This document shows positions 21,178-52,115 of a stretch of 64,000 nt of DNA, one piece after another (position 1 is the stretch's first letter; each line of letters opens with the position of its first letter). Source of the stretch: a virus (taxonomy: Duplodnaviria > Caudoviricetes); IMG/VR virus record IMGVR_UViG_2671180616_000002, positions 4,542 to 68,541 of that record; one strand, given 5' to 3'. A model generated the notes under the pieces. That model worked only from the letters and a program-made list of their open reading frames with translations, was not told the DNA's origin and did not search any database. The position numbers and the translations under genes are program-made.

Positions 21178-21540
21178 GTGAAGATCCTCGGACGCGAACC
21201 GGCTGTACTGCTGGGACTTGTAGCCGTCCTCATCAAGCTCGTCGCTGCGTTCGGTGTCGACGTCAGCGGCGAGCAGCAGGCCGTCATCAACGCCGTCGCA
21301 GCAGCCGCCGTCGGCGTCGCCCTCGCAGTCATGGCCAGCGACGGCCTCGGCGCCGCCCTGCTCGGCTTCGTCCAGGCCGCCCTCGCCCTCGCAGTTGGCT
21401 TCGGCCTCGACTGGTCCGCGGAGCAGCAGGCCGTTGTCCTCTCCGTCGGCGCAGCAGTCGTTGCCATGTGGGACCGCACCCAGGTCACCGCTCCCGTGCC
21501 AGCCTCTGCCGTCAAGCCGTCCGTCACCGCGGTCTCCTGA
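21178..21540 (+). CDS. Holin
   Basis: 120 aa with several hydrophobic segments, REPA start and RTQVT motif, directly after the endolysin. Confidence 0.75.
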   Translation: MKILGREPAVLLGLVAVLIKLVAAFGVDVSGEQQAVINAVAAAAVGVALAVMASDGLGAALLGFVQAALALAVGFGLDWSAEQQAVVLSVGAAVVAMWDRTQVTAPVPASAVKPSVTAVS

Positions 21541-21563
21541 CCCTTCGCAGATCCGGAATCGAC

Positions 21564-21875
21564 ATGGCTGATGAGCCGTCTCTGGGGGAGCTGGGGCGGC
21601 TCATCCAGCTCATGCGTGGCGACATTCGCGACGACATGGCGCAGATCAACTCCCGCCTCGACCGCATGGTGAGCACGGACGTGTACGGGGTGGAGAAAGC
21701 AGCCCTCGAACGGGAAATAGCCGACTTGAAGAAGGACGTGGAGAGCGTGCAAACGGAGAGGAACACGGACCGTGAGCGGGTCACCCAGACCCGGCGCTGG
21801 CTCTTCGCATCGGTCATCGTGCCCGTCCTCGGGCTGATTCTTCCCGTCGTCTTCTTCCTCGCCGGCACCAAGTGA
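21564..21875 (+). CDS. Lysis-cassette membrane protein (coiled coil + C-terminal TM)
   Basis: [12 protein letters not shown]..., terminal hydrophobic helix. Confidence 0.6.
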
Positions 21876-22615
21876 TGAGGGCCCAGAGCCGGGTGGAGGC
21901 CCGCAAGCAGCGCAAACGCGGAGACTACATAGCCGCAGGCGCCGCCCTGATCGCGGCGGTCGTACTGGGCATCACCCTCACGGCGTTCGTGCTCCTCTCC
22001 CGCAACCTCGACGAGGCCAACCTGGCCCGCGACGCTCTGGCCCGGCAGGTGCAGGCGCTTGGGGGCAAACCGGTGGCAGGGCCGCCCGGATCTCGCGGCG
22101 AGCCGGGACAGGGAGCTGTTGGCCCGCCGGGTCTTGCCGGCCCGCGCGGTCCGTCCGGTGAGCCCGGCAAGCCCGCCCCGACCCTCACCCCGAAGCCCGG
22201 CCCCCCTGGCCCTCCCGGACCGCAGGGCATCGTAGGGCCCGCATCTACCGTGCCCGGACCGGTCGGACCGACCGGTCTGCCCGGTCAGGACGGTGCGCCT
22301 GGTCAGGACGCCACGGGTGTACCGGGCCCACCCGGTACACCTGGGCAGGACGGCCAGGATGGTGCTCCGCCAGCGGCGTGGACGTACACGGACGCCGACG
22401 GGAACACCTACCAGTGCACGCCGGTCGAGGACTTCGACCCGGACAATCCGCGCTACCGGTGCACCCCGGACGATCCGCCACCGAGCGAACCGGCCCCGGA
22501 TCCTGCGCCTTCCCCTTCGGCGTCTGCTTCGCAGTCGTCTGAGCCCGACCCGTCCAAGGGAAACTCCGACGGTGCCCTGTTTCCGCTCAAGCTCCAAGAG
22601 CGTCGGCGCCCATGA
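21875..22615 (+). CDS. Membrane-anchored collagen-like protein
   Basis: N-terminal TM, Gly-X-Y repeats, C-terminal segment with two Cys. Confidence 0.75.
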
Positions 22616-22632
22616 TCACTGGCTTCGCCCAC

Positions 22633-22675
22633 TCTGTCTTATAGTTCCGCACAGCAAATAACGTGATCTTGCAAA
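22633..22675 (+). repeat. Left copy of a 43-bp inverted repeat
   Basis: TCTGTCTTATAGTTCCGCACAGCAAATAACGTGATCTTGCAAA matches the reverse complement of 36016-36058 at 42 of 43 positions. Confidence 0.95.
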
Positions 22676-22829
22676 TCTGATCGCTCCGCCTCTGACCTGC
22701 GCATACTCGGGTCAAAACCCCACTCCGAGGAGCCAGGCGCCACCTCGGCCGACCAGGCTGTTCCCCTAGGATGCACATGTGTCCCCGGCCGCTTTCCTCG
22801 GCCGGGGGCACACCATTCGCACTCGCTGA

Positions 22830-23072
22830 TCAGGCTCCGCGCAGGATCTCGTACCGCAGCTGAGCTTCAGGGGACCGGTCGTTCAGCCACCCTTCGCCGT
22901 GCTGGTCGCAGTTCTTGCTGTCGTCTTCGCTGCCGCGACGCAGCCAGCAGTGGCCGTGCTCGTCAACCCGGGGGCAGCAGCCGCAGGTGGCCTCGCAGCA
23001 CTCTTCACCGGGTGTGCAGTCAGCGCAGCGATCACCCGCGCAGTAAGGCTCTGGGGCCTCAGCCTGAGTCAT
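22830..23072 (-). CDS. Small Cys-rich hypothetical protein
   Basis: MTQAEAPEPYCAGDRCADC...CCEATCGCC...; last gene of the minus-strand operon. Confidence 0.5.
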   Translation of the reverse strand: MTQAEAPEPYCAGDRCADCTPGEECCEATCGCCPRVDEHGHCWLRRGSEDDSKNCDQHGEGWLNDRSPEAQLRYEILRGA

Positions 23073-23083
23073 GGTCACAGCCC

Positions 23084-23416
23084 TTACTCCCCGGTGGCCC
23101 AGGGTGCCTTTTGCATGTAGCCCCCGTTGCGGTTCTTGAAGTGCTCCGTCACCGAGATGCCCATCTTCACAAGTGGGCGCAGGGCGGCGGAGGCGGCGAC
23201 CTGAAGGTCGTACGCATCGGAGAGCGGTCCGGCGGACAGCTGATACTCCTCGACGGCGGGCCAGTCGTCGACGAGGTAGTGGATTCGCCACCCGTCGCCG
23301 TCGGGTTCGAAGGCGATGCCGACCTGGTGGCGGTGAGCGGTGGCGAGGAGGTCGCCCACGGCTTGCAACAGCTCGGGCGGGTAGGCGTTCGGCTCAGGGC
23401 TCAGGTTGTCGCTCAT
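23084..23416 (-). CDS. Hypothetical protein
   Basis: GAGGA RBS, MSDNLSPEP..., good codon bias. Confidence 0.6.
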   Translation of the reverse strand: MSDNLSPEPNAYPPELLQAVGDLLATAHRHQVGIAFEPDGDGWRIHYLVDDWPAVEEYQLSAGPLSDAYDLQVAASAALRPLVKMGISVTEHFKNRNGGYMQKAPWATGE

Positions 23417-23442
23417 GGTCGTGGTCCTCACTGCTCGGTGGT
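23414..23442. repeat. 29-bp direct repeat, copy 1 (gene junction)
   Basis: CATGGTCGTGGTCCTCACTGCTCGGTGGT, 27/29 identical to 23887-23915. Confidence 0.9.
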
Positions 23443-23889
23443 CAGGGCTTGCATGGGGAAGTTCACGGCTCGGGTGGCCGGCGGGTAGTCGGCGTCGGCC
23501 CCGCCGGTGAGTAGGGCGAGGGACCAGGCGGTAGTGGCGTGCTCGAAGTTCTGGCGGGTCTGGTGGTAGTCGGCTGCGGCCGCCTTGACGTACCGGGCAG
23601 CGGCGGTGCTGTACCGGGTGACTTCGCTGGTGCAGGTGAGGATGTCGCCTAGGAGACTGTCGACCGCCAGGTACCAGGAGTTGAGCATCCCGGCGTGCTC
23701 GCGCAGCATGTCGCGGGTCGTGTCCTGCCCGTACTCGGTCTCGTGCCAGCGGATGTGCTCAATGGTGAGCGAGGCGAAGCAGTCGCGGAGGCCGCTGCTT
23801 TGGACGGCGGCTTCGTAGTCGAAGATGGCACGGGTCTCGCCGGGGGTGAATGCCTCGGTGTCGTACTCGTAGATATCCAGGTCGGCCAT
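23428..23889 (-). CDS. Hypothetical protein flanked by 29-bp direct repeats
   Basis: GAGGA RBS, MADLDIYEYDTE...TTEQ*. Confidence 0.6.
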   Translation of the reverse strand: MADLDIYEYDTEAFTPGETRAIFDYEAAVQSSGLRDCFASLTIEHIRWHETEYGQDTTRDMLREHAGMLNSWYLAVDSLLGDILTCTSEVTRYSTAAARYVKAAAADYHQTRQNFEHATTAWSLALLTGGADADYPPATRAVNFPMQALTTEQ

Positions 23890-23915
23890 GGTCGGTGTCC
23901 TCACTGCTCGGTGGT
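23887..23915. repeat. 29-bp direct repeat, copy 2
   Basis: CATGGTCGGTGTCCTCACTGCTCGGTGGT. Confidence 0.9.
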
Positions 23916-24062
23916 GCGGTCGAGGTCCTTGTCGGTGGCCGGCACCAGCTTGGCGATGGGCTTCCCGTGCCGGGTGATCAGCACTTCCTCGCCCTGGAAG
24001 CCGACCTCGTTCAGCAGGTCGGCGAAGTTCCTGCGCGCCTCTTCGGCTGTCATCGTCTTCAT
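23901..24062 (-). CDS. Phd/YefM-family antitoxin-like protein (53 aa, not in the ORF track)
   Basis: Manual translation MKTMTAEEARRNFADLLNEVGFQGEEVLITRHGKPIAKLVPATDKDLDRTTEQ fits the Phd N-terminal DNA-binding consensus. Confidence 0.85.
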   Translation of the reverse strand: MKTMTAEEARRNFADLLNEVGFQGEEVLITRHGKPIAKLVPATDKDLDRTTEQ

Positions 24063-24120
24063 CCCTCGACTCTACCAGTCTGCTAGGATCTATAGAACCT
24101 TACAGAACTGGAGAAGTCGA

Positions 24121-24687
24121 GTGCAAGAGGCGCTGACACCCGAACTGGACCGGCTGTGTGGAAACTCGGAGTGCGAGGTGGACCTGTCGGCCGCCCTGGA
24201 GGCAGGGGACAAGTCGAAGTACTGCTCGACACGTTGCAAGGGGCGGGCGTACCGGGCCAATCGGCGTCGACGCGCTTCGGAACTGAGTAGCAAGTTCTGC
24301 ACAGGCTGCCAGGAGGAGAAGGGCATCGAGCACTTCTCGCAGCCGTGGGTGCACTACTGCCGCCCCTGTGCCAACGCGAGGAGCAGAGAGGACTACATCG
24401 CAAGGGGCGGCGCGGAGTACGCCTACGCCAAGGGGCTGAAGTACCACTACGGCCTGTCGGTTGACGAGTACGCGGCGCGCCTGGAAGCACAGGGTGGACG
24501 ATGCGCGATCTGCCGAGAAGAGTCGCCGCAACGGCTGCATGTGGATCACGACCATCGCACTGGCGCTGTGCGAGATCTTCTCTGCGAAGGATGCAACCAC
24601 GCGATCGGCAAGGCTCAAGAGGACCCGGCCCGGCTGCGCGCCATGGCCGACTATCTGGAGCGTCACACAGCTGCCCCTGAGCGATGA
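24121..24687 (+). CDS. Endonuclease VII-type HNH nuclease with N-terminal zinc fingers
   Basis: YGLSVDEY...QGGRCAIC...LHVDHDHRTGAVRDLLCEGCNHAIG. Start codon uncertain. Confidence 0.85.
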   Translation: MQEALTPELDRLCGNSECEVDLSAALEAGDKSKYCSTRCKGRAYRANRRRRASELSSKFCTGCQEEKGIEHFSQPWVHYCRPCANARSREDYIARGGAEYAYAKGLKYHYGLSVDEYAARLEAQGGRCAICREESPQRLHVDHDHRTGAVRDLLCEGCNHAIGKAQEDPARLRAMADYLERHTAAPER

Positions 24688-24854
24688 TTCCTGGTCGTCC
24701 CACACGGGCTGGCGTTCCTTAGGATCGATCCTGGAGAAGAATCGAACGGATCGAACGCTCTGTGGTCCGTTTTGGCGGGTCGGGGGGAACATCGCGTCTC
24801 ACTCCAAATAATGTTCCTTCTATGGAGCCAAGATCCGGAGCAGGGGAGACGGTC

Positions 24855-25187
24855 GTGGATGAGTCGGAGATGGTGGCTTTCTGGCGATGTCGCCTGGACG
24901 AAGACGAGCAGGCGGCACGCGAAGCGCTGGCCCGGACAACGACGACACGGCGCATGATCGGCGGACAATGGGTAGAGGACACAGTCCAGCCTCCAGAGTG
25001 GCGTCGCTCTACCTGGTCGCCTCAGCGTGTCCTCGCCGAAGTCGCAGCCAAGCGGCAGCGCCTGGCCCACCTCGCTGAAGCAGTAGAGGCCGGGCAGGAC
25101 TCCTACGACTTGGCATCGGTCCTGCTGCCGTATGAGCTGCTGCCGTACGCAAACCACCTGGCCTACAAGGAGAGCTGGCGGCCGTGA
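24855..25187 (+). CDS. DUF6221-like protein
   Basis: FWRCRLDEDEQAA...PQRVLAEVAAKR...LPYANH..YKESWRP. Confidence 0.65.
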   Translation: MDESEMVAFWRCRLDEDEQAAREALARTTTTRRMIGGQWVEDTVQPPEWRRSTWSPQRVLAEVAAKRQRLAHLAEAVEAGQDSYDLASVLLPYELLPYANHLAYKESWRP

Positions 25188-25432
25188 GCCCCGAGGACGA
25201 GGCGACCGCGCACCTGCTCGTGACTGCGGCCTTTCATGATGCCGCCGTCAGCGCTGACGAGCGGGGGGACGCCAGCGTTGGCGACTTCTCCCGGGCTGTC
25301 ATCCGGCTGTTCGAGGAGCACCAGCGCCTCGAAGGCTCGCTGTACCTGGTCGTGATGAAGTACGCGCTGGAGCACGCACCGCCCGAGGATGTGGCGGCCC
25401 TGCGGCGCTGGATCGCGGAGGTGGATGCGTGA
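25184..25432 (+). CDS. Hypothetical protein
   Basis: GTGA overlaps on both sides. Confidence 0.5.
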   Translation: MSPEDEATAHLLVTAAFHDAAVSADERGDASVGDFSRAVIRLFEEHQRLEGSLYLVVMKYALEHAPPEDVAALRRWIAEVDA

Positions 25433-26586
25433 CCGAGCATGCGGACGTGGTGGACGCGGAGTTGGTCGAGGAGGACCGGCTCCCGGCCATCCCCGAGGAC
25501 CGTGCCCCTGCCGTACGGCAGGAGGACGAGGACCCGGACGCGTGGCTGCCGCCCGAAGCTGAGGAGGACGTCAAGGCGGGCATCCCCCGGGACACCAGCC
25601 GGGCTTACGAGGGTGACATGCTGCGGTTCGCCCAGTGGTGTGAGCAGGTCGGCCGCCGGGTGATGCCCGCCGCACCGCAGACCGTGACCGCGTACATGTC
25701 GTACCTCAAGCGCACACCCCGGGAGAAGACCGGCCGCCCGTACGGCCCTTCCTCCATGGACCGGATCATCGCGTCCATCCGCTCCTCGCACCGGGCGGCG
25801 GGCTTCAAGCCGCCGGACACCATGGGCGCGCGGAAGGTCGTCGCCGGGTACAGGGCTGCCCTGTCCGTAGCCCAGGATCCGGCTGCGACAACGAAGAAGG
25901 CCACGCCGGCGCACCGGGCCGTCCTCCGCGAAGCGCTCGCCCACCTGGACCGCACCACGCTGGTCGGGAAGCGCGACGCTGCCTTGATGCTCCTGGGGCA
26001 CGCCCTCGCATCCCGTGGCAGCGAGCTCGCGCCGCTGGACTGGCCGGCCAGTTTCACCGAGCTGCCCGAGGGCGGGTTTCGGGTGCGGGTGTACCGCAAG
26101 AAGCGGAAGGTGTGGCAGAACGTGGAGGTGCTGCCCGACCCGGAGCCGGACGTGTGCACTGTCGCGGCCGTGCGCGCTCTCGTCGCGGCGCTGGCCGATG
26201 AGGGGCATCACTCGGGGCCGCTGTTTCTGCGCATCGACCAGTGGGGCTACATGGGCGCCGAGATGACCCGCAAGGGGAAGCCGGTTGGTGACCCGTCGGG
26301 GCGGATCAGCGTCAACGGTGCCTCGGATGTCGTGACGCGGTCCATCGGGCGCACGGGCCTGCCTGGGGAGTGGCGGTCGCACTCGCTGCGCCGCGGGTTC
26401 GTGAAGACCGCCCGGGACGCGGGCGTGGACATCGTCGACATCGGACGGCACGGTGGCTGGGACGACCGGTCCAAAGCCCTCATCGGATACATCGACGAGG
26501 AGGAGAGTACGGGGGAACGGAACCCGCTGGCGAAGATCGGAACGGCCGCTGTGAAGCAGAAACAGAAGGCAGAGGAGCAGCAGTGA
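25429..26586 (+). CDS. Cre-like tyrosine recombinase
   Basis: N-terminal core-binding domain (TSRAYEGDMLRFAQWC); RDAALMLLG...SRGSEL; HSLRRG; GGW; catalytic Tyr in LIGYID. The Trp in place of the second His matches P1 Cre. Confidence 0.88.
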   Translation: MTEHADVVDAELVEEDRLPAIPEDRAPAVRQEDEDPDAWLPPEAEEDVKAGIPRDTSRAYEGDMLRFAQWCEQVGRRVMPAAPQTVTAYMSYLKRTPREKTGRPYGPSSMDRIIASIRSSHRAAGFKPPDTMGARKVVAGYRAALSVAQDPAATTKKATPAHRAVLREALAHLDRTTLVGKRDAALMLLGHALASRGSELAPLDWPASFTELPEGGFRVRVYRKKRKVWQNVEVLPDPEPDVCTVAAVRALVAALADEGHHSGPLFLRIDQWGYMGAEMTRKGKPVGDPSGRISVNGASDVVTRSIGRTGLPGEWRSHSLRRGFVKTARDAGVDIVDIGRHGGWDDRSKALIGYIDEEESTGERNPLAKIGTAAVKQKQKAEEQQ

Positions 26587-27665
26587 CCGCCAAGGAGTAC
26601 AGGCCGGCGTCGGTGCGGCAGCTCGATGCGGTGGTGGATGCTCTGGCCGGGTCGGTGTCGGCGGGCCGGTTGCGGCAGCTGCGGATGACGGTGGGCATGT
26701 TCGCCCGGGCGGTGGGGCGTGAGGAGCTGGCCGGGCGGGGGTCGCGGAAGGCTGCCCGCTTGTTCGATCCGGATGTGCTGGGTGTGTTCTGGGAGCTGGC
26801 GGTGGCCGGTGAGCTGCGGCACTTCGACAAGGACGTGGGTAAGGAGTTGCCGCTGGCGTCGCAGCGGATCGTGCGTGACTGCTTGGCGATCCTGGCCCGT
26901 CAGGTGGTTCCGGGCCGGGTGGTGGGGTTGCCGTCGTTGCCGCAGGTGGAGTTGAAGGAGACCGTCGGCGGGCGGCAGGTGACGGCCCTGTACCGGGAGC
27001 TGGTGGAGTTGGCGTCCGGGGGGCCGTTGGAGTTTGGTGGGGCGGTGATGTCGTACGAGGACCGGACTCGGTTGCTGGCGATCGTGTCGGTGGTGCTGGA
27101 TTCGGGGGCCCGGTCGGGGGAGTTGGCGGCGATGGCGTTGGATGATCTGGGGCCGGGTGAGGTGTGGGTGGGGTTGCGCCGGCGTCAGCAGAAGGGGCCG
27201 CGTTCCCGGGCGGAGGAGATTGCCGCCCGGTTGGGGTTGTCGCCGGTGACGGTGCAGGAGGTGCTGTCGGAGCGGCCGCGGGGCATCTCGGCGTTCACGC
27301 AGTCGCGGGTGTGGGAGGTGGCGGCCGCGTTGGATCCGGTGCCGGAGGTGGAGCGGTACGAGCTGCGGGAGGGCTCACGGGTCGCTGTGCGCCGCTGGCT
27401 GCGGGTGCGGGAGCAGGTGGTGGCCCCGTTGGAGGGGGCGAAGACCGCCCTGTGGGTGCGGCTGTGGCCGAACCGGTACGGGCCGGCCGGGTTGCCGTTG
27501 CGGGCGCAGGGGCTGCGGCAGTCGTACGCGCGGGGCATGGGGGCGTTGAACATGCTGATGGCGGGGCAGTACGGGTGGTCGCCGATGCCGACGACGTTGG
27601 AGCAGCTGCGCCGGGCGGTGCCGGCCGTGCCGTTGGAGGAGCCGTCGGCTCAGTCGCCGTCGTAG
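26583..27665 (+). CDS. Tyrosine-recombinase-fold protein lacking the catalytic Tyr region, with an inserted LacI-type HTH
   Basis: RTRLLAIVSVVLDSGARSGEL (box I); AEEIAARLGLSPVTVQEVLS...ISAFTQSRVWEVAAAL (LacI-like HTH); ends shortly after TTLEQLRR. Confidence 0.7.
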   Translation: MTAKEYRPASVRQLDAVVDALAGSVSAGRLRQLRMTVGMFARAVGREELAGRGSRKAARLFDPDVLGVFWELAVAGELRHFDKDVGKELPLASQRIVRDCLAILARQVVPGRVVGLPSLPQVELKETVGGRQVTALYRELVELASGGPLEFGGAVMSYEDRTRLLAIVSVVLDSGARSGELAAMALDDLGPGEVWVGLRRRQQKGPRSRAEEIAARLGLSPVTVQEVLSERPRGISAFTQSRVWEVAAALDPVPEVERYELREGSRVAVRRWLRVREQVVAPLEGAKTALWVRLWPNRYGPAGLPLRAQGLRQSYARGMGALNMLMAGQYGWSPMPTTLEQLRRAVPAVPLEEPSAQSPS

Positions 27666-28180
27666 CCCCACATGTCGGGGGTGTCCCCGCAGCAGGCTGG
27701 GCACATGCAGCGGCAGGTGTTCTCCCGCCCGGTGCACGGCCCGGGCGTGCCGGGTTCACCGTCTTCGTGTGCCGCAGCTCCGGGGCAGTAGGGGCCCGGC
27801 TTCGGGCAGTCGGCCACCGCCATCTCGTGCGTGTTGCACCAGGTGCGCAGGGCGGTCTCAAGCTGGGCGTCGCCCCACGTGTGGCCGTAGCGGCGTGCGT
27901 TCTCCTCCCACGGGCATCGGGCTTCAACCTCCTGGGGCGGGCAGGAGGGGGCGGCGCCGTCTGGGTAGGTAGCCCAGCCGCCCTTTTCGGGGAAGGACGT
28001 CCAGCTGCGCCCGTCGGGGGCAACCCACTCCAGCCACTCCGGGGCGCCGGTGGCGGGGCGGCGTGTCAGGCGGCGCCAGACGGTGACCCCGCAGGCGGTA
28101 CACCGCGTAGCGTCCTGGCTGCCGCCTTCGAAGCAATGCTGGCCGGTGAGGTCGGCCAAGCGGATCTGGATGCCATGCAT
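27650..28180 (-). CDS. Cys-rich hypothetical protein
   Basis: GAAGGAGG RBS, MHGIQIRL..., multiple CxxC. Confidence 0.55.
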   Translation of the reverse strand: MHGIQIRLADLTGQHCFEGGSQDATRCTACGVTVWRRLTRRPATGAPEWLEWVAPDGRSWTSFPEKGGWATYPDGAAPSCPPQEVEARCPWEENARRYGHTWGDAQLETALRTWCNTHEMAVADCPKPGPYCPGAAAHEDGEPGTPGPCTGRENTCRCMCPACCGDTPDMWGYDGD

Positions 28181-28194
28181 GGTGGCCCCTCCTT

Positions 28195-28395
28195 CTACAC
28201 CCCGGGTATGGGGTCTTGGTCGACGTGGTGGCGTGGATGGCTGCCCTGGCGGTCTGGATCGCACTCAGGGCCCAGTCTTCTCGACCGAGAGATTGGGTCG
28301 GTCAAAGACCTTTTGCAGTCGGTACAGCGGACGGTGGGGAGGTGGGCGACGCGGGTGTCGTCCAGCGTGGGCTGCTGTGCGGGGCGTCTGGCCAT
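28195..28395 (-). CDS. DUF6011-like zinc-ribbon protein
   Basis: CTDCKRSLTDPISRSRRLGPEC. Confidence 0.65.
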   Translation of the reverse strand: MARRPAQQPTLDDTRVAHLPTVRCTDCKRSLTDPISRSRRLGPECDPDRQGSHPRHHVDQDPIPGV

Positions 28396-28472
28396 GGCTC
28401 TCATTGTGGCTTGGTGATCGGGGGTAGCGGCGTGGCGAGTAGATCCGCTACGCTGCGCGTGCGCGATCAGTA

Positions 28473-28509
28473 TGAAAAGGCCACTACCCGGTTCGGGGCA
28501 GTGGCCTTC
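28473..28509 (-). terminator. Intrinsic terminator for the WYL operon
   Basis: Minus strand GAAGGCCACTGCCCCGAACCGGGTAGTGGCCTTTTC. Confidence 0.65.
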
Positions 28510-28522
28510 TGCATGTCCAGGA

Positions 28523-28672
28523 TCAACCGGCGTGCGGCAGCCAGTGCTTGGGGTCATTGCCGGTTCCGCAGCAGGTCGGGCAGTTCCCAGTGTCCGGGTC
28601 GCAGCCGTCGCAGCCGGTTCCGTTGCACTGGGGGTGGGCGCCATCTCCCTGGCAGGTGCGGCAGTCGTACAT
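28523..28672 (-). CDS. 49-aa DnaJ-type CxxCxGxG zinc-finger microprotein (not in the ORF track)
   Basis: AGGAGG RBS; MYDCRTCQGDGAHPQCNGTGCDGCDPDTGNCPTCCGTGNDPKHWLPHAG*. Confidence 0.7.
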   Translation of the reverse strand: MYDCRTCQGDGAHPQCNGTGCDGCDPDTGNCPTCCGTGNDPKHWLPHAG

Positions 28673-28681
28673 GAGGTCCTC

Positions 28682-29098
28682 CTAGGCGGCGAGCGCGGCG
28701 TCGGTCTGGATAAGGGTGCGGGGGGTGTAGTCGGCGTCGTCCTGGTCGCGGGCGAGCTCGTAGAAGAAGAGGGCTTGCGCGTCCGTGGTCGGCGCGGGTG
28801 CGGGGCGGACGTACTTGGTGGGAGCCGGCCGGTCGAGGACGTAGGCGATGCGGTGGAGCGTGTACGCCTGGATGCCGGAGAGGTGGAACTGGCGCTCGTC
28901 GCCGCGGAGGCGGCACATGGCGACGATGGCGATGCTGCCGTTCTTCGTGGTGCGGACTTCGTGTACCTCGATGGTGCGGACGGTGGGCTCGGTCTCGCCG
29001 GGCTTGAGGTAGGTGATGGTGATGGCGTGCTGGTGGTCGAGGGCGCGGTAGAGGTCGGTGAGGGTCTTGGTGGTGGTCTGACGTCGTGTGATGCGCAT
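28682..29098 (-). CDS. Stand-alone WYL-domain protein
   Basis: ALDHQHAITITYLKPG...RTIEVHEV...IVAMCRLRGDERQFHLSGI fits the WYL pattern; no HTH. Confidence 0.75.
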   Translation of the reverse strand: MRITRRQTTTKTLTDLYRALDHQHAITITYLKPGETEPTVRTIEVHEVRTTKNGSIAIVAMCRLRGDERQFHLSGIQAYTLHRIAYVLDRPAPTKYVRPAPAPTTDAQALFFYELARDQDDADYTPRTLIQTDAALAA

Positions 29099-29140
29099 TT
29101 GGTGCCCCCGCTGCTTGGTGGTGTGGTTTCACCGTAGCAC

Positions 29141-29168
29141 GTAAGTCGTTGCGTGCGTAGCGATTTAC
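29141..29168. promoter_or_regulatory. 28-bp palindromic operator/promoter motif, copy 1
   Basis: GTAAGTCGTTGCGTGCGTAGCGATTTAC; a TACGGT -10 follows on the minus strand toward the WYL gene. Confidence 0.75.
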
Positions 29169-29214
29169 AGATACGGTTGGGAACAGCCGGACAGACACCG
29201 GCCACCAACCGGCT

Positions 29215-29242
29215 CGTAACGGTTGCGTGCGTAGCGACTTAT
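29215..29242. promoter_or_regulatory. 28-bp motif, copy 2 (left arm degenerate)
   Basis: CGTAACGGTTGCGTGCGTAGCGACTTAT. Confidence 0.7.
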
Positions 29243-29329
29243 TGAGGGAGACTTAGCGTGCCCACCACACACAGCAGCGGGCGCCCGCCCGGCCGCCGGG
29301 ACGGACGCCGGCCGCCGGAAGGACACGCC

Positions 29330-29901
29330 GTGCCCCGAACCAGCCTGCGAGCCCACGCAGTCGACGCCCTGCCCGACGCCAGGAAGGCCGTCACGTTCCT
29401 GGAGGAGGCCGGGCAGCCCGCCCTGGCCACCGCCGTCTCCAGGATCGTGGAATTCACCGAGGACCGTACCGGCGCCGAGATCAGGAACGCCCGACGGGAC
29501 GCCGACCTGGACCCCCCGGTCTCCCTGTTCGTCACGGAAGCGTTCAAGAACCACATCAAGGCGGCTCAGGACCCCAAGAAGCCGCTCGCCCAGGTCGTCA
29601 CCCCGTACCTGGACAAGTTCCTGGCCGGCCGGTGGACGCCGCCGGCACCGCCTGGCGTTCCGGTCGTCAAGGGTGTCGTGCCGACGCTGAAGCGCGCCCC
29701 GCGGGGGCCGCGCCCGCCAAGTCGTCCATGACGGTGCGTATCCCGCAGGACCTGTTCGAGAAGGTCGACGCCCGGGCGAAGGACCCGGCGCGGGCGGCAG
29801 AGCGCGGGTACGCGCTGAACGGCCGCATGGTGATGATCGCCGCCCTGGCTGAGGAGTTCAAAGTCCCGGACGACGCTCTGACCGGCGCCAAGAGCAAGTA
29901 G
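29330..29901 (+). CDS. Tandem ribbon-helix-helix regulator; apparent single-G loss at about 29705
   Basis: RHH1 PPVSLFVTEAFKNHIKAA...LAQVVTPYLDKFL. Adding one G joins RHH2 KSSMTVRIPQDLFEKVDARA...RMVMIAALAEEF. Confidence 0.65.
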
Positions 29902-29980
29902 GTACCGCGCGGGCGGGGCCTGGACGCCGACAACTGGGCCCCGACACCGCAGCACCCCGCACAACCACATAGGAGACCTC

Positions 29981-31222
29981 ATGGCCACGGCCACCGAGGC
30001 CCCCGCCAGCGTCACGGCGGAGGGCCCCACCTCGCACACCCAAAACCAGGCCGATGCGCTCGCGAAGCTGCGCGAGCCGTTCCAGCCCAACCAGATCTCC
30101 AAGCTTCCCAAGATCTGGTGCGGCAAGTGCTCCAAGTCCCAGTACAAGGTGTGCGATGACCACACCCGGGAGCGTTGCGACGTCTGCGCCGGGAAGATGA
30201 CCAGCGCGCACCTGCACCTCGACTATGTCGGTCACGCCGAGTTGACCGGCCGCCTGCTTGAGGCCGACCCCCTGTGGACGTGGGAGCCGATGGCGTTCGA
30301 CGCGGATGGGCTGCCCAAGTTCGACCAGCATGGCGGGCTGTGGATCCGGCTCACGGTCGCAGGGCACACCCGACTCGGCTACGGCGACGCCCAGGAAAAG
30401 ACGGGCCCGAACGCGGTCAAGGAAGCGATCGGGGACGCTCTACGGAACGCTGGCATGCGCTTCGGTGCCGCGCTCACGCTGTGGTCCAAGACGGACATGG
30501 ACGAGGCGGACGCGCAGAAGAAGAACCTGTCCACCGAGCCGTCCCGCGAGGACAGGCTGGAAGACCTGTACGGGCTGATGCAAAAGCGGTGGGGCCACCT
30601 GGGCGGCATGCGCGCCCTGAAGGTCATGGTCGGCGAGGAGTCCTTCCACGAGTCCCAGGTCCGCGACCCGGCCGGCCAGCTTCGCCTCTTCGGCCAGATC
30701 ATCGACGACCGCATCCTGGAGCTCCTGGACCAGGAGAAGACGCAGAAGTTCATGAGCGCCGCGCGCAGCGGGTGGAACGACCTCGCGGCGACGGAGAAGA
30801 ACTTGGAGGACGCCCGCGCGAAGAAGCTGCTGGACGTGACGATCCCGTTCGGCACCCCGGAGACCCCGACCCGGATCGAGGACCTGCTCGTCACCCGCAT
30901 CGCGGAGCTGAAGGGCAAGCCCAACGAGCCGTCGGCCACCGCAACCTCGGAGCAGGGGGCGGCCGGAAGTGACCCCATCGACCACCTGATGTCCCAGGTG
31001 CAGAACCACTGGGCCGACTTCACCGAGCTGACGAAGACGCTCGCCGAGGCCGGGCGCCGCAACCAGCTCGCCCGCGAGGTCGAAGGCCCGCTCGGCACCC
31101 AGGTGCAGTTCGGGGCCATGGTGACCGCCCGTATCGCCGAGCTGAAGGCGATGGCGCAGAAGCAGGCCCAGGACGCCGAGCAAGCCGCCCACACACGCGA
31201 CAGCCAGAGGAGCGCCGCCTGA
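29981..31222 (+). CDS. Rad52/Sak-like single-strand annealing protein with zinc insert and C-terminal repeats
   Basis: LREPF..., LDYVGHA, WTWEP, LWIRLTV, KEAIGDALRNAGMRFG..L.LW. Confidence 0.75.
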   Translation: MATATEAPASVTAEGPTSHTQNQADALAKLREPFQPNQISKLPKIWCGKCSKSQYKVCDDHTRERCDVCAGKMTSAHLHLDYVGHAELTGRLLEADPLWTWEPMAFDADGLPKFDQHGGLWIRLTVAGHTRLGYGDAQEKTGPNAVKEAIGDALRNAGMRFGAALTLWSKTDMDEADAQKKNLSTEPSREDRLEDLYGLMQKRWGHLGGMRALKVMVGEESFHESQVRDPAGQLRLFGQIIDDRILELLDQEKTQKFMSAARSGWNDLAATEKNLEDARAKKLLDVTIPFGTPETPTRIEDLLVTRIAELKGKPNEPSATATSEQGAAGSDPIDHLMSQVQNHWADFTELTKTLAEAGRRNQLAREVEGPLGTQVQFGAMVTARIAELKAMAQKQAQDAEQAAHTRDSQRSAA

Positions 31223-32637
31223 TGCTCGTCAACCGCCGCACGCTGGACGGAGATACGACGGACGCCTTCTGTGGCGCCGGTGGCTCGTCCGAGGGTGCCC
31301 GTCAGGTGGGCGTGAAGGTCCGTACCGCGCTGAACCACTGGCGGCTCGCTGTCGACGTCCACAACGCCAACCACGTGGAGACCACGCACGACTGTGCGGA
31401 TATCTCCCAGGTCGACCCCCGCCGGTACCCGACCACGACGTTCGCCTGGTTCTCCCCGTCCTGCACTAACCACTCCATCGCCAAGGGCCGTAAGCGGCAC
31501 ATCGACGCCACCCCCGACCTCTTCGAGGAGACGCTGCCCGACGAGGCCGCGGAACGCTCCCGCGCGACGATGTGGGACGTCGTGCGGTTCACCGAGTACC
31601 ACCGCTACCGGGCGGTCATCGTGGAAAACGTAGTCGATGCCCGCGACTGGATCCTGTGGCCCGCCTGGTTCACTGCCATGAAGGCCATGCGGTACCGGGC
31701 CAAGGTCGTCTACCTCAACTCGATGCACGCTCAGGCGCTGGGCCCGGGTGCCTGTCAGTCGCGGGACCGCATGTACGTGGTGTTCTGGCTGGAGGGTGAG
31801 AAGGAGCCGGACTTCGCCCGGTGGACGCGCCCGATGGCGCACTGCACCGGGTGCGACAAGGTCGTGCGGGCGGTCCAGGCGTGGAAGAACCCGGACCGGT
31901 CGTACGGCAAGTACAAGACGCAGTACGTATGGCGCTGCCCCACCGCCCGCTGTCACGCCGAGGTCTTCCCGGCAGTGAGGCCGGCCGCCGACGCGATCGA
32001 CTGGGCTCTGCCCGCGGTCCGGATCGGAGACCGGGAACGGCCTCTGGCGGACAAGACGATGAAGCGCATCCGGGACGGCTTCGAGGCGTACGCCCGCCCG
32101 ATGCTGGTGCCGGTTGAAGGCCGGGAGGGGAAGGTGGCCCGGCCGGCGGATCTGCCGATGCGGACCTGCACGGCCCGCAACGAGACCGGTCTGGCCGTCC
32201 CTCCGTACGTGGTGGAACTGCGCGGAGGTGGCTCCAGCCACCGCCCACTCAGCGAGCCGCTCGCCACCGTATGCGCCTCCGGCAACCACCACGGCCTGGT
32301 CGCCCCCGACTTGGTCCTGCCCTACTACGGCAACGCCACCGCCCGCCCCACCGACGAACCGATCCCGACCATTACCACCGTGGACCGGCACGCTCTCCTC
32401 AAGGGCGGCCCAGTCACCAGGGCCGAGGACCTCGGCTTCCGGATGCTGTCCCCGGCCGAGTATGCCGCGGCGATGGAGTTCCCCCAGTCGTACATCTGGC
32501 TGGGCAACAAGCGCGAGCGGGTCCGCATGGCGGGGAACGCCGTCACCCCGCCCGCTGCCCGTGATCTGTTCGCCTGCGTCGCCGAGGCAGTGCTCGGCGT
32601 CTCCTACGACACCCCCGAGCTCGTCACCGCGGCCTGA
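31222..32637 (+). CDS. DNA (cytosine-5) methyltransferase
   Basis: Motifs I FCGAGG, IV SPSC, VI ENV, VIII QSRDR, IX-X RMLSP...GNAV. Confidence 0.92.
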   Translation: MLVNRRTLDGDTTDAFCGAGGSSEGARQVGVKVRTALNHWRLAVDVHNANHVETTHDCADISQVDPRRYPTTTFAWFSPSCTNHSIAKGRKRHIDATPDLFEETLPDEAAERSRATMWDVVRFTEYHRYRAVIVENVVDARDWILWPAWFTAMKAMRYRAKVVYLNSMHAQALGPGACQSRDRMYVVFWLEGEKEPDFARWTRPMAHCTGCDKVVRAVQAWKNPDRSYGKYKTQYVWRCPTARCHAEVFPAVRPAADAIDWALPAVRIGDRERPLADKTMKRIRDGFEAYARPMLVPVEGREGKVARPADLPMRTCTARNETGLAVPPYVVELRGGGSSHRPLSEPLATVCASGNHHGLVAPDLVLPYYGNATARPTDEPIPTITTVDRHALLKGGPVTRAEDLGFRMLSPAEYAAAMEFPQSYIWLGNKRERVRMAGNAVTPPAARDLFACVAEAVLGVSYDTPELVTAA

Positions 32638-32692
32638 GCCTCCCGGCTCCGCCACCCACAAGCACGACCCGCCCCTTCCCAAGGAGATCACC

Positions 32693-33523
32693 GTGCTCAT
32701 CCCCAACACGCCGTCCAACAACGGCCCCGAGTACCACATCGTCAACGTCACCCCGGAGCTCGCCGAAAAGTGGCTGACGCAGAACACCCGCAACCGGAAG
32801 ATCCGCGAGACGGCGGTCGCCGGGTACGCCCGGGACATGGAGGCCGGCGCCTGGGCGGAGAACGGTGAGTCGCTGAAGTTCGCCATAGACGAGACGCTCC
32901 TGGACGGGCAGCACCGGCTGCGGGCCATCGTCCGCTCCGGGGTGACTCTGCGGATGCTGGTCATCACCGGGTTGCAGCCGGAGACGCAGGAGACCATGGA
33001 CGACGGCCGTAAGCGCACCGTCGCGGACGCGCTCGCGCTGCGGGGGGAGTCGAACGCCACCCAGCTGGGCGCGGTCGTACGGCGCTGCCTGATGTGGACG
33101 CAGGGCATCCAGCGCAACGTGGGCAACCGGCCGCCGACGAACACGGAGTGCCTGGCGTTCTTCGCCGCCCACCCGGAGCTGCGGGTCTCGACGTCTGTGG
33201 CGACGGGGATGCGCAAGTCCGCGGCGCTGCCAGCGTCGGTGCTGGGCCTGACGCACTGGGTGTTCAACCAGATCGACGCCGAGGACTGCGCCTGGTTCTT
33301 CGACCGCCTCGCCACGGGAGCGAACTTGGAGCAGTTCCACCCGGTGTGGACGCTCCGCAAGCGCACCTTCGAGATCAGCACCGACCAGGGCCGGGTCCCG
33401 GAAGACATGCTGCTGGCCTTCGTCATCAAGTCGTGGAACGCCTACCGCGACGGCATCCCGCTGAAGCTGCTGCGGTTCTCGCCGGGTGGCGCCAACCCGG
33501 AGAAGTTCCCGCAGCCCAAGTAA
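32693..33523 (+). CDS. ParB/Srx-superfamily (DGQHR) phage protein
   Basis: VTPELAEKWL..NTRNR...YARDM..GAW...LLDGQHRLRAI; AAGGAG RBS. Confidence 0.75.
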   Translation: MLIPNTPSNNGPEYHIVNVTPELAEKWLTQNTRNRKIRETAVAGYARDMEAGAWAENGESLKFAIDETLLDGQHRLRAIVRSGVTLRMLVITGLQPETQETMDDGRKRTVADALALRGESNATQLGAVVRRCLMWTQGIQRNVGNRPPTNTECLAFFAAHPELRVSTSVATGMRKSAALPASVLGLTHWVFNQIDAEDCAWFFDRLATGANLEQFHPVWTLRKRTFEISTDQGRVPEDMLLAFVIKSWNAYRDGIPLKLLRFSPGGANPEKFPQPK

Positions 33524-33637
33524 CCCACCACCAGCCCCGGGGCGCCCCGCATGGGTGTCGCCCCGGGGCTGTGCTGTACCCGCACCCCGCCCACCCCGCC
33601 GTCCGCCCGGGCCGGCGCCGCCTTGAGGAGGCTGGTC

Positions 33638-33898
33638 ATGTCCGATGCTCTGCTGCCCAGTGTCGTGGTCGTCCTGATCGCCATGGGCGGCCTGTACGCG
33701 GCCACCGAAGCCTGGTGGCGCCGCACGAACCCGAAGCCGCCCCCGCCGCACTCCCGTTCCGCCCTCCGACGCCGGGAGGTGGACCTGCTCATCGTCGCGG
33801 AGGCGATCGTCGCCGACCGGTACACGGTGATCGCCGACCTGTACGAGACCCCCGCCGAGCCGGTGCCCGCCCCGTTTCGGGTGCGGGCCGACCGCTGA
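33638..33898 (+). CDS. Small membrane protein
   Basis: GAGGAGG RBS, N-terminal TM. Confidence 0.5.
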   Translation: MSDALLPSVVVVLIAMGGLYAATEAWWRRTNPKPPPPHSRSALRRREVDLLIVAEAIVADRYTVIADLYETPAEPVPAPFRVRADR

Positions 33899-33923
33899 CC
33901 CCGTCCGCCGACTCGTCTGGGAG

Positions 33924-34211
33924 GTGAGTGTCTTGCTGATCTGGACCGCTGTACTCGCCCTGGCCGTCGCCGTGCTGGGCGTGACCGCGTGGTGGAGGGT
34001 GCGCCGCGCCCTGGCCGCGGAGCGTGCCCGCCGGCAGCTGACGGAGGCCATGCAGCACCGCGACCTGTGCGCGTTCACCGCCCGGGTGCAGGACCTGACC
34101 AACGCCCGCGCGGTGATGGACGCCGCCGCGGCCGTCGTCGACCAGGCCCTCGCCGCACTTCCCGCCCATCACCAGCCCGACCCGACCGAAGAGGAGGGGG
34201 GATCGTCATGA
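33924..34211 (+). CDS. Small membrane protein
   Basis: N-terminal TM followed by a coiled coil. Confidence 0.5.
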   Translation: MSVLLIWTAVLALAVAVLGVTAWWRVRRALAAERARRQLTEAMQHRDLCAFTARVQDLTNARAVMDAAAAVVDQALAALPAHHQPDPTEEEGGSS

Positions 34212-35140
34212 CACCCACCACGCCCCGTATACCGACAGCCCGTACCGCTGAGATCACGCTCGTCGACCACCCGTACTACCGCTACCGGGGGTGCGCCCCC
34301 GACCCTGAGCGGCCGGGCATGGCCGCGGGCGCCGACCTCCCCCACAACACGTGGATCGCCCCGGACGTGGACGGCGGGGAGGAGCAGACGGAGCGCCGCG
34401 CCCGTGAGAACGCCGCTATCGCCGTCTGCCACCGGTGCCCAGTGCTGCGCGAGTGCGCGGCGTTCGCCAACTCGGAGACGGACGACGGTCACCTGGCCCT
34501 GGAGTCCGGGATAGCCGGCGGCACCCGGGCCCTGGACCGCCACCGGGATCTGATCGCCCGCCGCCTTCAGGCCGGGCCCATCGCCGCACCGGACAAGCTG
34601 CCCGCCCAGGTCCACACCGCACAGAAGCAAGCCGTCCTGCGCGCCCTGGCCGCCCACGTCTCTGCGGAGGCGGTGGCGGAGGCCGCGGGGATGGATCTGC
34701 GGACCGCGGCCTGGCAGCGCTCCCGCCTGGTGACGCTGCTGGGCCTGGACAAGGCGACCGCGACCCGCCGCGAGCTCCTGGACGTGGCGGTGCGGGCCGG
34801 GCTGCTGGACGGGGTGCAGGTCGTGGCCTGTGACGGCACGGTGCCCGCGGTCCCCCCGCCGCCGGCCCCCGCACCAGCGCCCGTCCTCATCACCGCCGCC
34901 GCCCCGGCACCGGCCGCGCAGAACCCGCCCGCCCCCGCGGCGGCCCCGGGCCCGGCGCCTGCCGCGGCCGTCGACGACGCCGCCCCGTACGTCCCCGTGC
35001 GCATCCCCTCCCCGCGCCGGGCCCGCTTCACCAAGGTCCCCGGACAACTACAACTCCCCCTCCTCGACCCGGCCGGGCGTACCCGCCTGCACCTGGTCCC
35101 CACCCTGCCCGCCACCCACGCCCTGGAGCCCGCCGCATGA
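34208..35140 (+). CDS. WhiB-like Fe-S domain fused to a LuxR-like HTH and Pro/Ala tail
   Basis: YRGC...AIAVCHRCPVLREC...GIAGG; then TAQKQAVLRALA...AEAVAEAAGMDLRTA. Confidence 0.65.
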   Translation: MTPTTPRIPTARTAEITLVDHPYYRYRGCAPDPERPGMAAGADLPHNTWIAPDVDGGEEQTERRARENAAIAVCHRCPVLRECAAFANSETDDGHLALESGIAGGTRALDRHRDLIARRLQAGPIAAPDKLPAQVHTAQKQAVLRALAAHVSAEAVAEAAGMDLRTAAWQRSRLVTLLGLDKATATRRELLDVAVRAGLLDGVQVVACDGTVPAVPPPPAPAPAPVLITAAAPAPAAQNPPAPAAAPGPAPAAAVDDAAPYVPVRIPSPRRARFTKVPGQLQLPLLDPAGRTRLHLVPTLPATHALEPAA

Positions 35141-35568
35141 CCACCACCCCCACCCCCGCGCCCGCACCGGACGCCCCCGGCGCGGACCTCACTACGGCCG
35201 CCGACCATGTCCTGGCCGAACGGTGCGCGAACAGCGGTCAGTACATAGCTGGGCTCATCGCCGCCGGCATGCTCGACGCCGTCGGTACTCCGCGCCAGTT
35301 GCCCCGGTACCTGTTCCCCGACGTGGACCCCGCCGTCGCACAGGAAATCTTCGACCGGGGCGCGGCCACCGGCTACCGCGCCGCAATGCTGGCCGCCAAC
35401 CCCCAGTGGACCCGTGAAGGCATCGACCGCCTCCGTGCCGCGCTGCGCGACGCCGGGTACAGCGCCATGGGCGCCAGCGCCGACCGCACCGCCAACACCC
35501 TCCGCCCACTCGACCACCCCGCCGACACCGACCAGGGCACCGACACCGCCCGCGGCGAGCACTGGTGA
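35137..35568 (+). CDS. Hypothetical protein
   Basis: ATGA overlap, codon bias. Confidence 0.55.
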   Translation: MTTTPTPAPAPDAPGADLTTAADHVLAERCANSGQYIAGLIAAGMLDAVGTPRQLPRYLFPDVDPAVAQEIFDRGAATGYRAAMLAANPQWTREGIDRLRAALRDAGYSAMGASADRTANTLRPLDHPADTDQGTDTARGEHW

Positions 35569-35999
35569 GCGGGCGCCCCGGGCGAGGCCGGCCCGCGGTC
35601 TTCGACGAAGGCCGCCGCGAAAAGTACCTGGCCGCCATCACCGGCGGCATGAAAGCCCACGAAGCCGCCGTGCGCGCAGGCGTCTCTCGCAACATCCCCG
35701 CCCAGTACGCCAAGACCGACTCTGCTTTCGCCGCCGCCTTGGCCTTGGCGAAGAAGAAGGGGAGGGCCCAGCGCCTCGACGACATGCCGCACAACGTGTC
35801 CCGGTACGTCAACTACGGCTGCCGCTGCCCGACCTGCCGGGCCGACGCCACGAAAAAGCGCGCCGCAAGCCCCGACCGGAAACCGAAAGCCCGCCCCGCA
35901 CCGGCCCCCACGCCCGCCTCCCATGAGGTGATCCACATGCCCAAACCGGCCCCGCAAACGCCTACTTCTTTGCCGCTGCTGCTGGTCAGAGCCTCGTAG
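35565..35999 (+). CDS. HTH + zinc-finger protein
   Basis: GRPAVF...AHEAAVRAGVSR; HNVSRYVNYGCRCPTCR. Confidence 0.6.
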   Translation: MSGRPGRGRPAVFDEGRREKYLAAITGGMKAHEAAVRAGVSRNIPAQYAKTDSAFAAALALAKKKGRAQRLDDMPHNVSRYVNYGCRCPTCRADATKKRAASPDRKPKARPAPAPTPASHEVIHMPKPAPQTPTSLPLLLVRAS

Positions 36000-36015
36000 A
36001 GGCCGGTGGGCCAAC

Positions 36016-36058
36016 TTTGCAAGATCACGTTATTTGCTGTGCAGAACTATAAGACAGA
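36016..36058 (-). repeat. Right copy of the 43-bp inverted repeat
   Basis: TTTGCAAGATCACGTTATTTGCTGTGCAGAACTATAAGACAGA is the reverse complement of 22633-22675 with one mismatch. Confidence 0.95.
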
Positions 36059-36420
36059 CCCAGGGAACCGGACGGGCGTGCGATGACACGAAAAACCCAT
36101 GACCAGACCAGGAATCAACACGATGGCCGCAACAGAGGACACGTGGCGCCTCGAACCGGTAGGCTGCGCCTGACGCCAGACGACCACTCAGCTACACGGC
36201 CCGACGGTGCACCCCAGACACAGGTCCGGCCCCGCTGTAACTCCCAGGTGCGTCAACACCAGGGAAGCGGGGCCGGGTCGACACTCAACCCTTACGAAGG
36301 TGCCGACATGGCGAAGCGTACCCGGGGGACTCCCCCGTCAGACAGTGGGACCCGCAAGTCCGGCGTGAACATCACACCGCTGGCAAGTTCGGGCCCTGTC
36401 ACCACTACACGTCCCACACG

Positions 36421-36801
36421 ATGAGCAGCCAGGCCGGCGAGGACATCCTCAGCTGGCTGGACACCGCCATCACGAAGGCGGAAGCCGACGCCGACCGCTG
36501 GCACGACGCGGAGTGCTCGTCCCACGGCACCACCATCCTTGATCTCACCGTGCTTCAGGACGGTGCCACGCTGTGCGACTGCGAGGGCCCCTCCGCAGTG
36601 CGACGTCGCTGCGTCGCCGACCGGAAGCTGATCGCGGCCCATCCGATCACCCGCGACGTGATCGCCGTGCATCCCGATGGCACCCACGGCTTCGGCTGCT
36701 CCGTGTGCCACAACGAGGACCTGCTGACAACCGGCGACGGCTGGTGCGACAGCCTGCGCGCCCTGGCCGAGGGCTACGGCTGGACGGAGGGCGAGCGATG
36801 A
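36421..36801 (+). CDS. DUF6221-like protein
   Basis: ILSWLDTAITKAE...VRRRCVADRKLIAAH...CSVC...WCDSLRALAEGYG. Confidence 0.55.
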   Translation: MSSQAGEDILSWLDTAITKAEADADRWHDAECSSHGTTILDLTVLQDGATLCDCEGPSAVRRRCVADRKLIAAHPITRDVIAVHPDGTHGFGCSVCHNEDLLTTGDGWCDSLRALAEGYGWTEGER

Positions 36802-44249: not shown

Positions 44250-44261
44250 CATGACCAGTGC

Positions 44262-52097: not shown

Positions 52098-52115
52098 GTG
52101 TGGAACCCCCCGTGC

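Follow-up and report, generated by a model that had tools for sequence, protein, structure and literature searches.

The present analysis concerns a window of 64,000 nucleotides of viral DNA (positions 4,542 to 68,541 of the IMG/VR record IMGVR_UViG_2671180616_000002), and in particular two overlapping genes, here called gene 1 and gene 2, and the pair of inverted 43-base-pair (bp) sites by which they are enclosed. The G+C content of the window is about 69%, and the 68.5-kb record to which it belongs is classed as a provirus fragment. The element to which the window belongs is a Streptomyces phage-plasmid of the pZL12 type; such elements are about 90 kb long and maintained as plasmids. The question addressed is whether gene 2, which has the fold of a recombinase without its catalytic tyrosine, serves the recombinase encoded by gene 1 or binds DNA as a regulator. 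The features on which the argument rests are the following.

22633..22675, plus strand: left 43-bp AT-rich site, with its inner arm AAATAACGTGATCTTGC at 22656-22672
24802..24827, plus strand: probable recombination core site of gene 1, with 10-bp imperfect inverted arms (8/10 complementary) and a 6-bp spacer
25429..26586, plus strand: gene 1, a complete Cre-like tyrosine recombinase of 385 residues ("type A"), recognised by PDB and PHROG matches and by its catalytic residues
26583..27665, plus strand: gene 2, a tyrosine-less protein of 360 residues with a recombinase fold and a LacI-type headpiece insert, overlapping gene 1 by 4 bp (GTGA)
27195..27338, plus strand: LacI-type helix-turn-helix headpiece of gene 2 (about residues 205-252), between the strands of the beta2-beta3 hairpin, placed by the structure model and by profile matches
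27597..27614, plus strand: presumed degenerate box II of gene 2, LEQLRR (residues 339-344), with His changed to Glu and Arg kept; the protein ends 16 residues further on
36016..36058, minus strand: right 43-bp site, an inverted copy identical at 42 of 43 positions, with its inner arm at 36019-36035

The original prediction, made from the letters of this DNA, had described gene 2 as overlapping gene 1, carrying box I and a LacI-like helix-turn-helix inserted into the catalytic domain, and stopping after a degenerate box II with no downstream Tyr; it had also ascribed the R, HxLR, W and Y catalytic positions to gene 1. These points were borne out by the present analysis. The GTG start codon of gene 2 (26583-26585) overlaps the TGA stop codon of gene 1 (26584-26586), and the homologues of gene 2 share its N-terminus. 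Box I (DSGARSGEL) is present, and its R177 and E180 are invariant in 24 of 24 aligned sequences. In the AlphaFold2 model of gene 2 (pLDDT, the predicted local distance difference test score, of 81), strands at residues 195-199 and 256-260 flank the helices of the insert (206-217, 221-228 and 237-249). The Pfam LacI model matched the gene 2 protein alone only at an expectation value (E) of 0.11. The profile of the gene 2 family, searched against the PDB, matched the headpieces of Cra/FruR, CytR, LacI and PurR (E 2e-3 to 4e-2), and a precomputed PF00356 match was found in 24 of 120 homologues, among the matches listed. With a cut-off of E 1e-3, a profile search of 1.84 billion representative sequences returned no more than 204 clusters; many of them are 300-340 residues long and lack the profile positions of about 228-272 that correspond to the insert. 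No effector domain of the LacI/GalR type was detected by Pfam in gene 2. The best PDB matches of the model by Foldseek were XerA, Cre, XerH and Tn1549 Int, with probability 1.0 and over both domains; in the ESM Atlas, template modelling scores of 0.58-0.61 to XerC clusters were obtained, and PHROG 6657, a family of unknown function, matched gene 2 at E 1.6e-23. The gene 2 family is built on a two-domain recombinase clamp in which both phosphate-binding arginines are kept, and it is found in Streptomyces and related actinobacteria; the headpiece insert belongs to the clade of the window's gene 2.

The placing of box II rests on two lines of evidence. Two of the insert-less relatives exceed the Pfam integrase cut-off (P0158 with 36.2 bits and P0156 with 27.9), and the insert-less relatives align to positions 9-124 of the 172-position Phage_integrase model. 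On account of these coordinates and of the order of helices and strands in the gene 2 model, the motif (M/L)EQLRR was provisionally assigned to box II, with the long helix in front of it lying ahead of that box, and on this placing no room is left for the helices that carry Trp/His and Tyr. In the 24 aligned homologues R343 and R344 never vary and E340 and Q341 hardly do, Glu340 standing at the presumed position of the His, and all of the sequences end within about 35 residues of the motif. Direct hhalign alignments of gene 2 to recombinases (E 0.066 and 0.015) put box II at QGLRQ and the Tyr position at Q341, a register one structural element off, which was set aside on the same two grounds. 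The motif was present in 188 of 271 collected family proteins, and 165 of the 188 end less than 40 residues after it. A canonical His/Trp...Tyr segment was found in none of the 188 motif-bearing homologues (the longer tails are unrelated add-ons), and gene 2 is not merely a truncated copy of an enzyme. The ratio of nonsynonymous to synonymous substitution was 0.15-0.26 in 8 of 9 pairs of gene 2 sequences (0.57 in the ninth, the window versus L002), and therefore gene 2 is a working protein and not a decaying copy. Having neither the Trp/His nor the Tyr nucleophile, the protein is predicted to be unable to cut DNA by itself. As a separate observation, insert-less chromosomal relatives in Streptomyces are followed by perfect palindrome copies with a AAACGACGTCGTTT core (L045:375 and 1047; L046:2462 and 3134; L051:2458), the pairs in L045 and L046 being about 670 bp apart, and other branches of the tyrosine-less family may have DNA motifs of their own.

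Gene 1, as far as can be judged from its sequence, is an ordinary though divergent Cre-like recombinase and is predicted to be active. All 17 matches in a PDB sequence search were Cre or Tre variants (best E 1.1e-3). Residues 67-357 of gene 1 align to residues 52-327 of Cre, and this alignment brings SHSLRR onto box II of Cre, GGW onto its Trp and IGY onto its Tyr. In an alignment of 11 recombinases from the same position there is no variation at R196, H318 and Y354 and almost none at K225 and R321, and W344 is invariant in 10 type A sequences. Gene 1 also matched the PHROG 1 integrase family at E 5.7e-8. The score against Pfam PF00589 was 21 bits, below the curated cut-off of 27.1, and membership of the family is decided by the predicted catalytic residues despite this sub-threshold score. 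A structure model built from 10 close sequences reached a pLDDT of 45.7, which is too poor for fold comparison.

For the relation between the two genes, 35 related loci were retrieved, and a hidden Markov model (HMM) built from five recombinase types was run over them. In each of the 26 evaluable phage-plasmid loci the model gave exactly one match, directly upstream of gene 2 and on the same strand. Such a constant arrangement speaks for gene 2 as a subunit with an architectural, targeting or directionality function that forms one complex on DNA with the recombinase encoded upstream, of whichever type, and the 4-bp overlaps with recombinases of types A, B, C and D, the recombinase fold and the retention of both arginines are in keeping with this possibility. 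As inferred from Cre and Xer structures, the gene 2 family has no C-terminal helices to donate and could still accept those of a neighbour. The upstream recombinases, however, are of five unrelated types, only 18-29% identical to gene 1, and they are scattered at random over the gene 2 tree without co-phylogeny: type A needs 8 changes, against a mean of 8.6 after shuffling, and in the starred sister pairs L012/L013 and L015/L016 the two members differ in recombinase type. Moreover, no recombinase was found by the HMM within the retrieved flanks of eight standalone gene 2 loci (L011, L019, L021, L023, L025, L027, L033 and L035). These eight loci contain no phage marker genes. Oxidoreductases, regulators, UbiD, a DNA glycosylase and a nuclease are among the genes that adjoin gene 2 in them, and of the six standalone sequences included in the gene 2 tree, five group in a single well-supported clade. 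There is also no gene 2 motif near the recombinase core site in the window, and identical sites of the 43-bp type accompany type A and type B recombinases. On this evidence a heteromeric subunit is unlikely, and gene 2 is probably not the catalytic or dedicated partner of gene 1. The original prediction had offered either such a partner, active with gene 1 on the 43-bp sites, or a repurposed DNA-binding regulator. Its second alternative fits the data, whereas the first does not, in view of the swapping of recombinases, the core site that gene 1 has to itself, and the occurrence of gene 2 away from any nearby tyrosine recombinase in 8 of the 35 loci, which counts against the proposed pairing.

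The recombinases appear to be provided with sites of their own. Types A and B, and C and D jointly, are each accompanied by a distinct AT-rich near-palindrome that lies a few hundred bases before the recombinase gene. All 11 type A loci, and no other locus, have the type A core site, with 10-12-bp inverted arms flanking TGTTCC, upstream of the recombinase; the copy at 24802-24827 is the sole one in the window and in the 68.5-kb record, about 600 bp upstream of gene 1. A type B core site (TATAA-TTTCCC-TTGTA-like) is found in 6/6 type B loci, with a remnant in L017. A third core site, GCGATAAG-N-TCACATATCGC, is common to types C and D; it is present in four of five type C loci and one of three type D loci, and three loci of type A or B contain remnants of it. 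The positions of the core sites of other types are as follows.

L003:4784, L005:8440, L007:8579, L010:8452, L012:8441, L030:8164: other-type core sites, first group
L001:6319, L016:1138, L020:7899, L028:8493, L032:8665: other-type core sites, second group

Foreign-site remnants were seen in L005, L006, L017 and L031. The presence of such remnants in a few loci suggests that recombinase and core site are swapped jointly as cassettes. In the five host genomes with a type A element (7.3-8.8 Mb), the 16-nucleotide (nt) type A core occurs once per genome (5/5), and therefore there is no chromosomal attachment site. In P1, Cre-lox serves plasmid multimer resolution and re-circularisation of incoming DNA. 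Gene 1 most likely works alone on its single 26-bp core site, where by analogy with Cre it may perform either of these tasks; the lack of a chromosomal attachment site and the P1 analogy make such a single-site role the natural reading. The recombinase and core-site pairs (A, B and C/D) are possible new recombinase-and-site tools for Streptomyces genetics.

The inverted 43-bp sites, which had already been pointed out in the original prediction, were confirmed as a pair. For their 17-nt inner part, two occurrences were counted in the window where 0.01 would be expected. In the related loci, a low-G+C scan combined with a weight matrix found one copy 3-5 kb upstream of gene 2 and an inverted copy 7-9 kb downstream; both copies are present in 20 loci and at least one copy in 26 of 27. 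In the consensus, an outer block (TGTCCTAYAR) is separated by about 11 variable bases from an inner block (WAATAAS-NNGATCWWGC). An 11-14 kb early/maintenance region has two gene runs that read outwards, and each site stands at the 3' end of one of them. The left site follows the end of the leftward run (24062-22830) and lies between two convergent gene ends; the right site follows the rightward run (29981-35999), precedes the gene at 36083 and ends 25 nt before its ATG. Transcription leaving the enclosed region meets both sites inner arm first.

Sites that are inverted, nearly identical and placed around both genes could be taken for recombination sites at which genes 1 and 2 flip the intervening 13.3 kb, and the likeness of left and right copies within an element is what strand exchange demands. 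This is hardly credible, since gene order and orientation across both sites are identical in all 26 related phage-plasmid loci and therefore no inversion has been fixed. Public contig sets over 21500-36800 (four sets from one study and from related elements, 5-12% of sampled words) showed skips and no strand-changing joints; such contigs are blind to rare isomers and speak neither for nor against inversion. Type A and type B recombinases are found with one and the same site sequence, and therefore the 43-bp sites, which do not vary with recombinase type, are not those of the recombinase; they lack the two-inverted-arm symmetry of known core sites, and gene 1 has a core site of its own.

The inner arm, by contrast with the sites as a whole, is also found on chromosomes. 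A weight matrix trained only on the left sites of phage-plasmids gave 54 matches in 719 kb, compared with one in shuffled DNA. It found the inner-arm motif just upstream of the standalone homologues in L019, L021, L023, L025 and L027, and in L021 and L025 the motif is also present at the 3' end of gene 2. Whole genomes were then searched for the 17-bp motif AAATAACGTGATCTTGC with one mismatch allowed and with the reversed pattern as a control. Three genomes (7.4-9.9 Mb) contained a single copy each, always beside a gene 2 homologue; a fourth contained two copies, both beside a gene 2 homologue; and a fifth contained five, two of them flanking the gene 2 homologue and three elsewhere. The reversed pattern had no occurrence in the five genomes. 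These genome-wide counts are the strongest evidence linking the motif and the gene 2 protein, in the form of an association.

The same association would arise if the motif served as a promoter or as an operator for some other factor, for example the small protein beside the right site, and gene 2 bound elsewhere. The chromosomal copies do sit where the promoter of the gene 2 homologue would be, and the short distance from the right site to the ATG at 36083 would suit such an element. Tests of co-variation were likewise non-specific: site similarity was compared with protein similarity for four proteins, namely gene 2 and the products of the genes at 36083, 35565 and 37132 (the WYL protein was left out), which gave rho 0.02-0.54, following linkage, and from these modest correlations no binder could therefore be picked. 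On the other hand, a scan for sigma-70-like promoters predicted none at the left or the right site, and at the left site, between convergent gene ends, there is nothing for a promoter to read. No marker protein of the window was detected at the standalone loci, the 36083 product included, and yet the motif is present there and unique in the genome. A motif unrelated to the gene 2 protein is thus quite unlikely.

In the present study we therefore favour, with a probability of about 0.55, the reading that gene 2 encodes a sequence-specific DNA-binding regulator which recognises the 17-bp motif AAATAACGTGATCTTGC and is not the partner of gene 1. The protein would clamp DNA through its recombinase-like domains, and the LacI module would help to read the inner arm. 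On chromosomes gene 2 may regulate itself, as is suggested by the position of the motif just upstream of its homologue. On phage-plasmids the bound protein may block read-through out of the enclosed region, as a polar roadblock, or may pair the two sites; both are proposed because they fit the inner-arm-first geometry. The orientation-dependent "stoperator" sites of mycobacteriophage repressors provide a loose parallel.

Several observations weigh against this regulator. Both active-site arginines are invariant, and a pure transcription factor would not obviously need them. The left and right 43-bp copies show concerted evolution, being 93% identical within an element and 68% between elements (20 loci), and for their middle 12 bases these values are 92% and 50%. 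The regulator leaves this likeness without explanation, and none of the explanations proposed covers both the concerted evolution and the absent inversion. The outer arm and middle of the sites are absent from the chromosomal motif copies, and therefore gene 2 cannot explain the whole 43-bp site. The relation between protein identity and site identity is not specific to gene 2 (rho 0.06 for the inner arm). The motif might also serve as a promoter element, or belong to a different factor that accompanies the gene. Three motif copies (G001:C2:161456, G001:C12:644035 and G001:C23:509292; L039-L041) have no gene 2 homologue beside them; two of the three appear intergenic, and all could be additional targets. 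A sample of 201 Streptomyces genomes yielded one further full-length standalone case, G001, which was already counted. Finally, gene 2 adjoins a tyrosine recombinase in every evaluable phage-plasmid locus, with a 4-bp overlap in at least 7 loci spanning types A to D, and this arrangement argues for co-expression and leaves room for a functional link.

The same points can be put together in another way. Gene 2 might be a universal non-cutting recombinase subunit, whose Arg-Arg pocket and LacI module clamp the inner arms and which works with any upstream recombinase to control topology or copy number. It would pair the sites or receive the Tyr of its neighbour in trans, as Flp subunits do, and if this were true, such a reaction would have left its trace in the concerted evolution of the two sites. 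We consider this very improbable, and a regulator that reads the 17-bp motif remains the preferred interpretation. A motif that is unique in genomes of 7-10 Mb offers this interpretation a concrete and testable target.

Homologues of gene 2 are found mostly on Streptomyces contigs of 86-98 kb, several of which are labelled plasmid. The nearest named phage is pZL12, whose counterpart of gene 2 (annotated "hypothetical protein") is 51% identical; it is the only named phage with both genes, in the order integrase, endonuclease VII gene, "hypothetical protein". The plasmid-phage pZL12 reportedly replicates as a plasmid, and the ends of its packaged DNA are said to be largely random, like those of P1. 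The 86-kb related plasmid pSLE1 is described in PMC4487206 as syntenic with pZL12 and as carrying "two putative integrases". The region enclosed by the 43-bp sites encodes a Phd/YefM antitoxin, endonuclease VII, genes 1 and 2, a WYL regulator and a cytosine methylase. Upstream of gene 1 the following genes are present.

24148..24687, plus strand: recombination endonuclease VII gene, which heads the same-strand gene run (Pfam PF02945, E 2.6e-24)
24855-25187, plus strand: DUF6221 protein, between the core site and gene 1 (Pfam PF19730, E 1.1e-14)
25184-25432, plus strand: small protein without assigned function, from the list of open reading frames, between the core site and gene 1

On the minus strand, a Phd/YefM-type antitoxin gene (23901-24062, Pfam E 6e-13) is followed by a gene for 158 residues that overlaps it by 4 bp, and this pair (23428-24062) is probably a toxin-antitoxin system for plasmid maintenance. 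A membrane-anchored collagen-like repeat protein (21872-22615, plus strand) is the last of the lysis/structural block, just before the left 43-bp site, and is kept in most relatives. Repeats are also present elsewhere in the window. Four copies of a 21-bp palindrome-containing repeat with a CCCATAACTCAGTTATGGG core lie within 41788-42055, spaced by 78, 78 and 66 bp, within or beside the open reading frame 41027-42184, and look like iterons or a partition site. A repeat of about 30-37 nt with a TTGCGTGCGTAGCGA core has copies at 29134-29170, 29217-29248, 44255-44291 and 52109-52145. The first two lie between the gene of the WYL-domain regulator (28682-29098, minus strand) and the gene that follows, where palindromes are found in relatives too, and are possibly the operators of that regulator.

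Among known systems, Cre of P1 is the sole solved relative of gene 1 and has, like it, a Trp at the His/Trp position. In both cases the host is a plasmid-prophage with a single core site near the gene, and a chromosomal copy is absent here. The identity to Cre is low (E about 1e-3), and the putative gene 1 site differs in its 10-bp arms and 6-bp spacer. With XerC/XerD, the pair shares two recombinase-fold genes side by side and asymmetric DNA sites. The Xer proteins, however, both keep the Tyr and co-evolve, whereas here one protein is without Tyr and the other is interchangeable, and the pairing of gene 1 with gene 2 is not conserved outside phage-plasmids. To the LacI/GalR repressors gene 2 is similar in having the same kind of DNA-reading headpiece, and some of its homologues are annotated "LacI family" by NCBI. 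It differs in lacking the sugar-binding core and in that the headpiece is inserted inside another fold, hence the misleading annotation. The database names "LacI family regulator" and "integrase" for gene 2 homologues are accordingly corrected here.

The closest parallel in kind is MrpR (YopR), the master repressor of SPbeta-like Bacillus phages, which has a tyrosine-recombinase fold without recombinase activity and binds a 15-bp element that is repeated in the phage genome (PMC10516654); SroF is a protein of this kind as well (bioRxiv 10.1101/2025.11.27.690993). A literature search on tyrosine-less recombinase relatives turned up MrpR and the domestication of eukaryotic Cryptons and not the gene 2 family, which is no proof of novelty. 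No sequence relationship between gene 2 and MrpR was detected, MrpR being absent from the family-profile PDB matches at E up to 10 and from among the Foldseek matches listed. Like MrpR and SroF, gene 2 encodes a phage protein with a two-domain recombinase fold and is a putative DNA binder on a short repeated element. The likeness rests on the fold and the motif association, and a repressor role of gene 2 is only putative. In anatomy the two differ: MrpR, according to PMC10516654, keeps the Lys and Tyr, has lost the Arg and His and is left with 3 of 7 catalytic residues, while gene 2 keeps both Arg, has lost the C-terminal part with Trp/His and Tyr, and adds a LacI headpiece insert. Only two putative sites of gene 2 are seen per element, as an inverted pair, in comparison with the nine binding peaks of MrpR. 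The only recombinase-fold DNA-binding regulators known to date are those of one group of Bacillus phages. The gene 2 type is spread across a group of about 90-kb Streptomyces phage-plasmids and also occurs as single genes in Streptomyces chromosomes. The comparison points to gene 2 as a second, independent case of a recombinase fold turned into a DNA-binding regulator, with a different anatomy.

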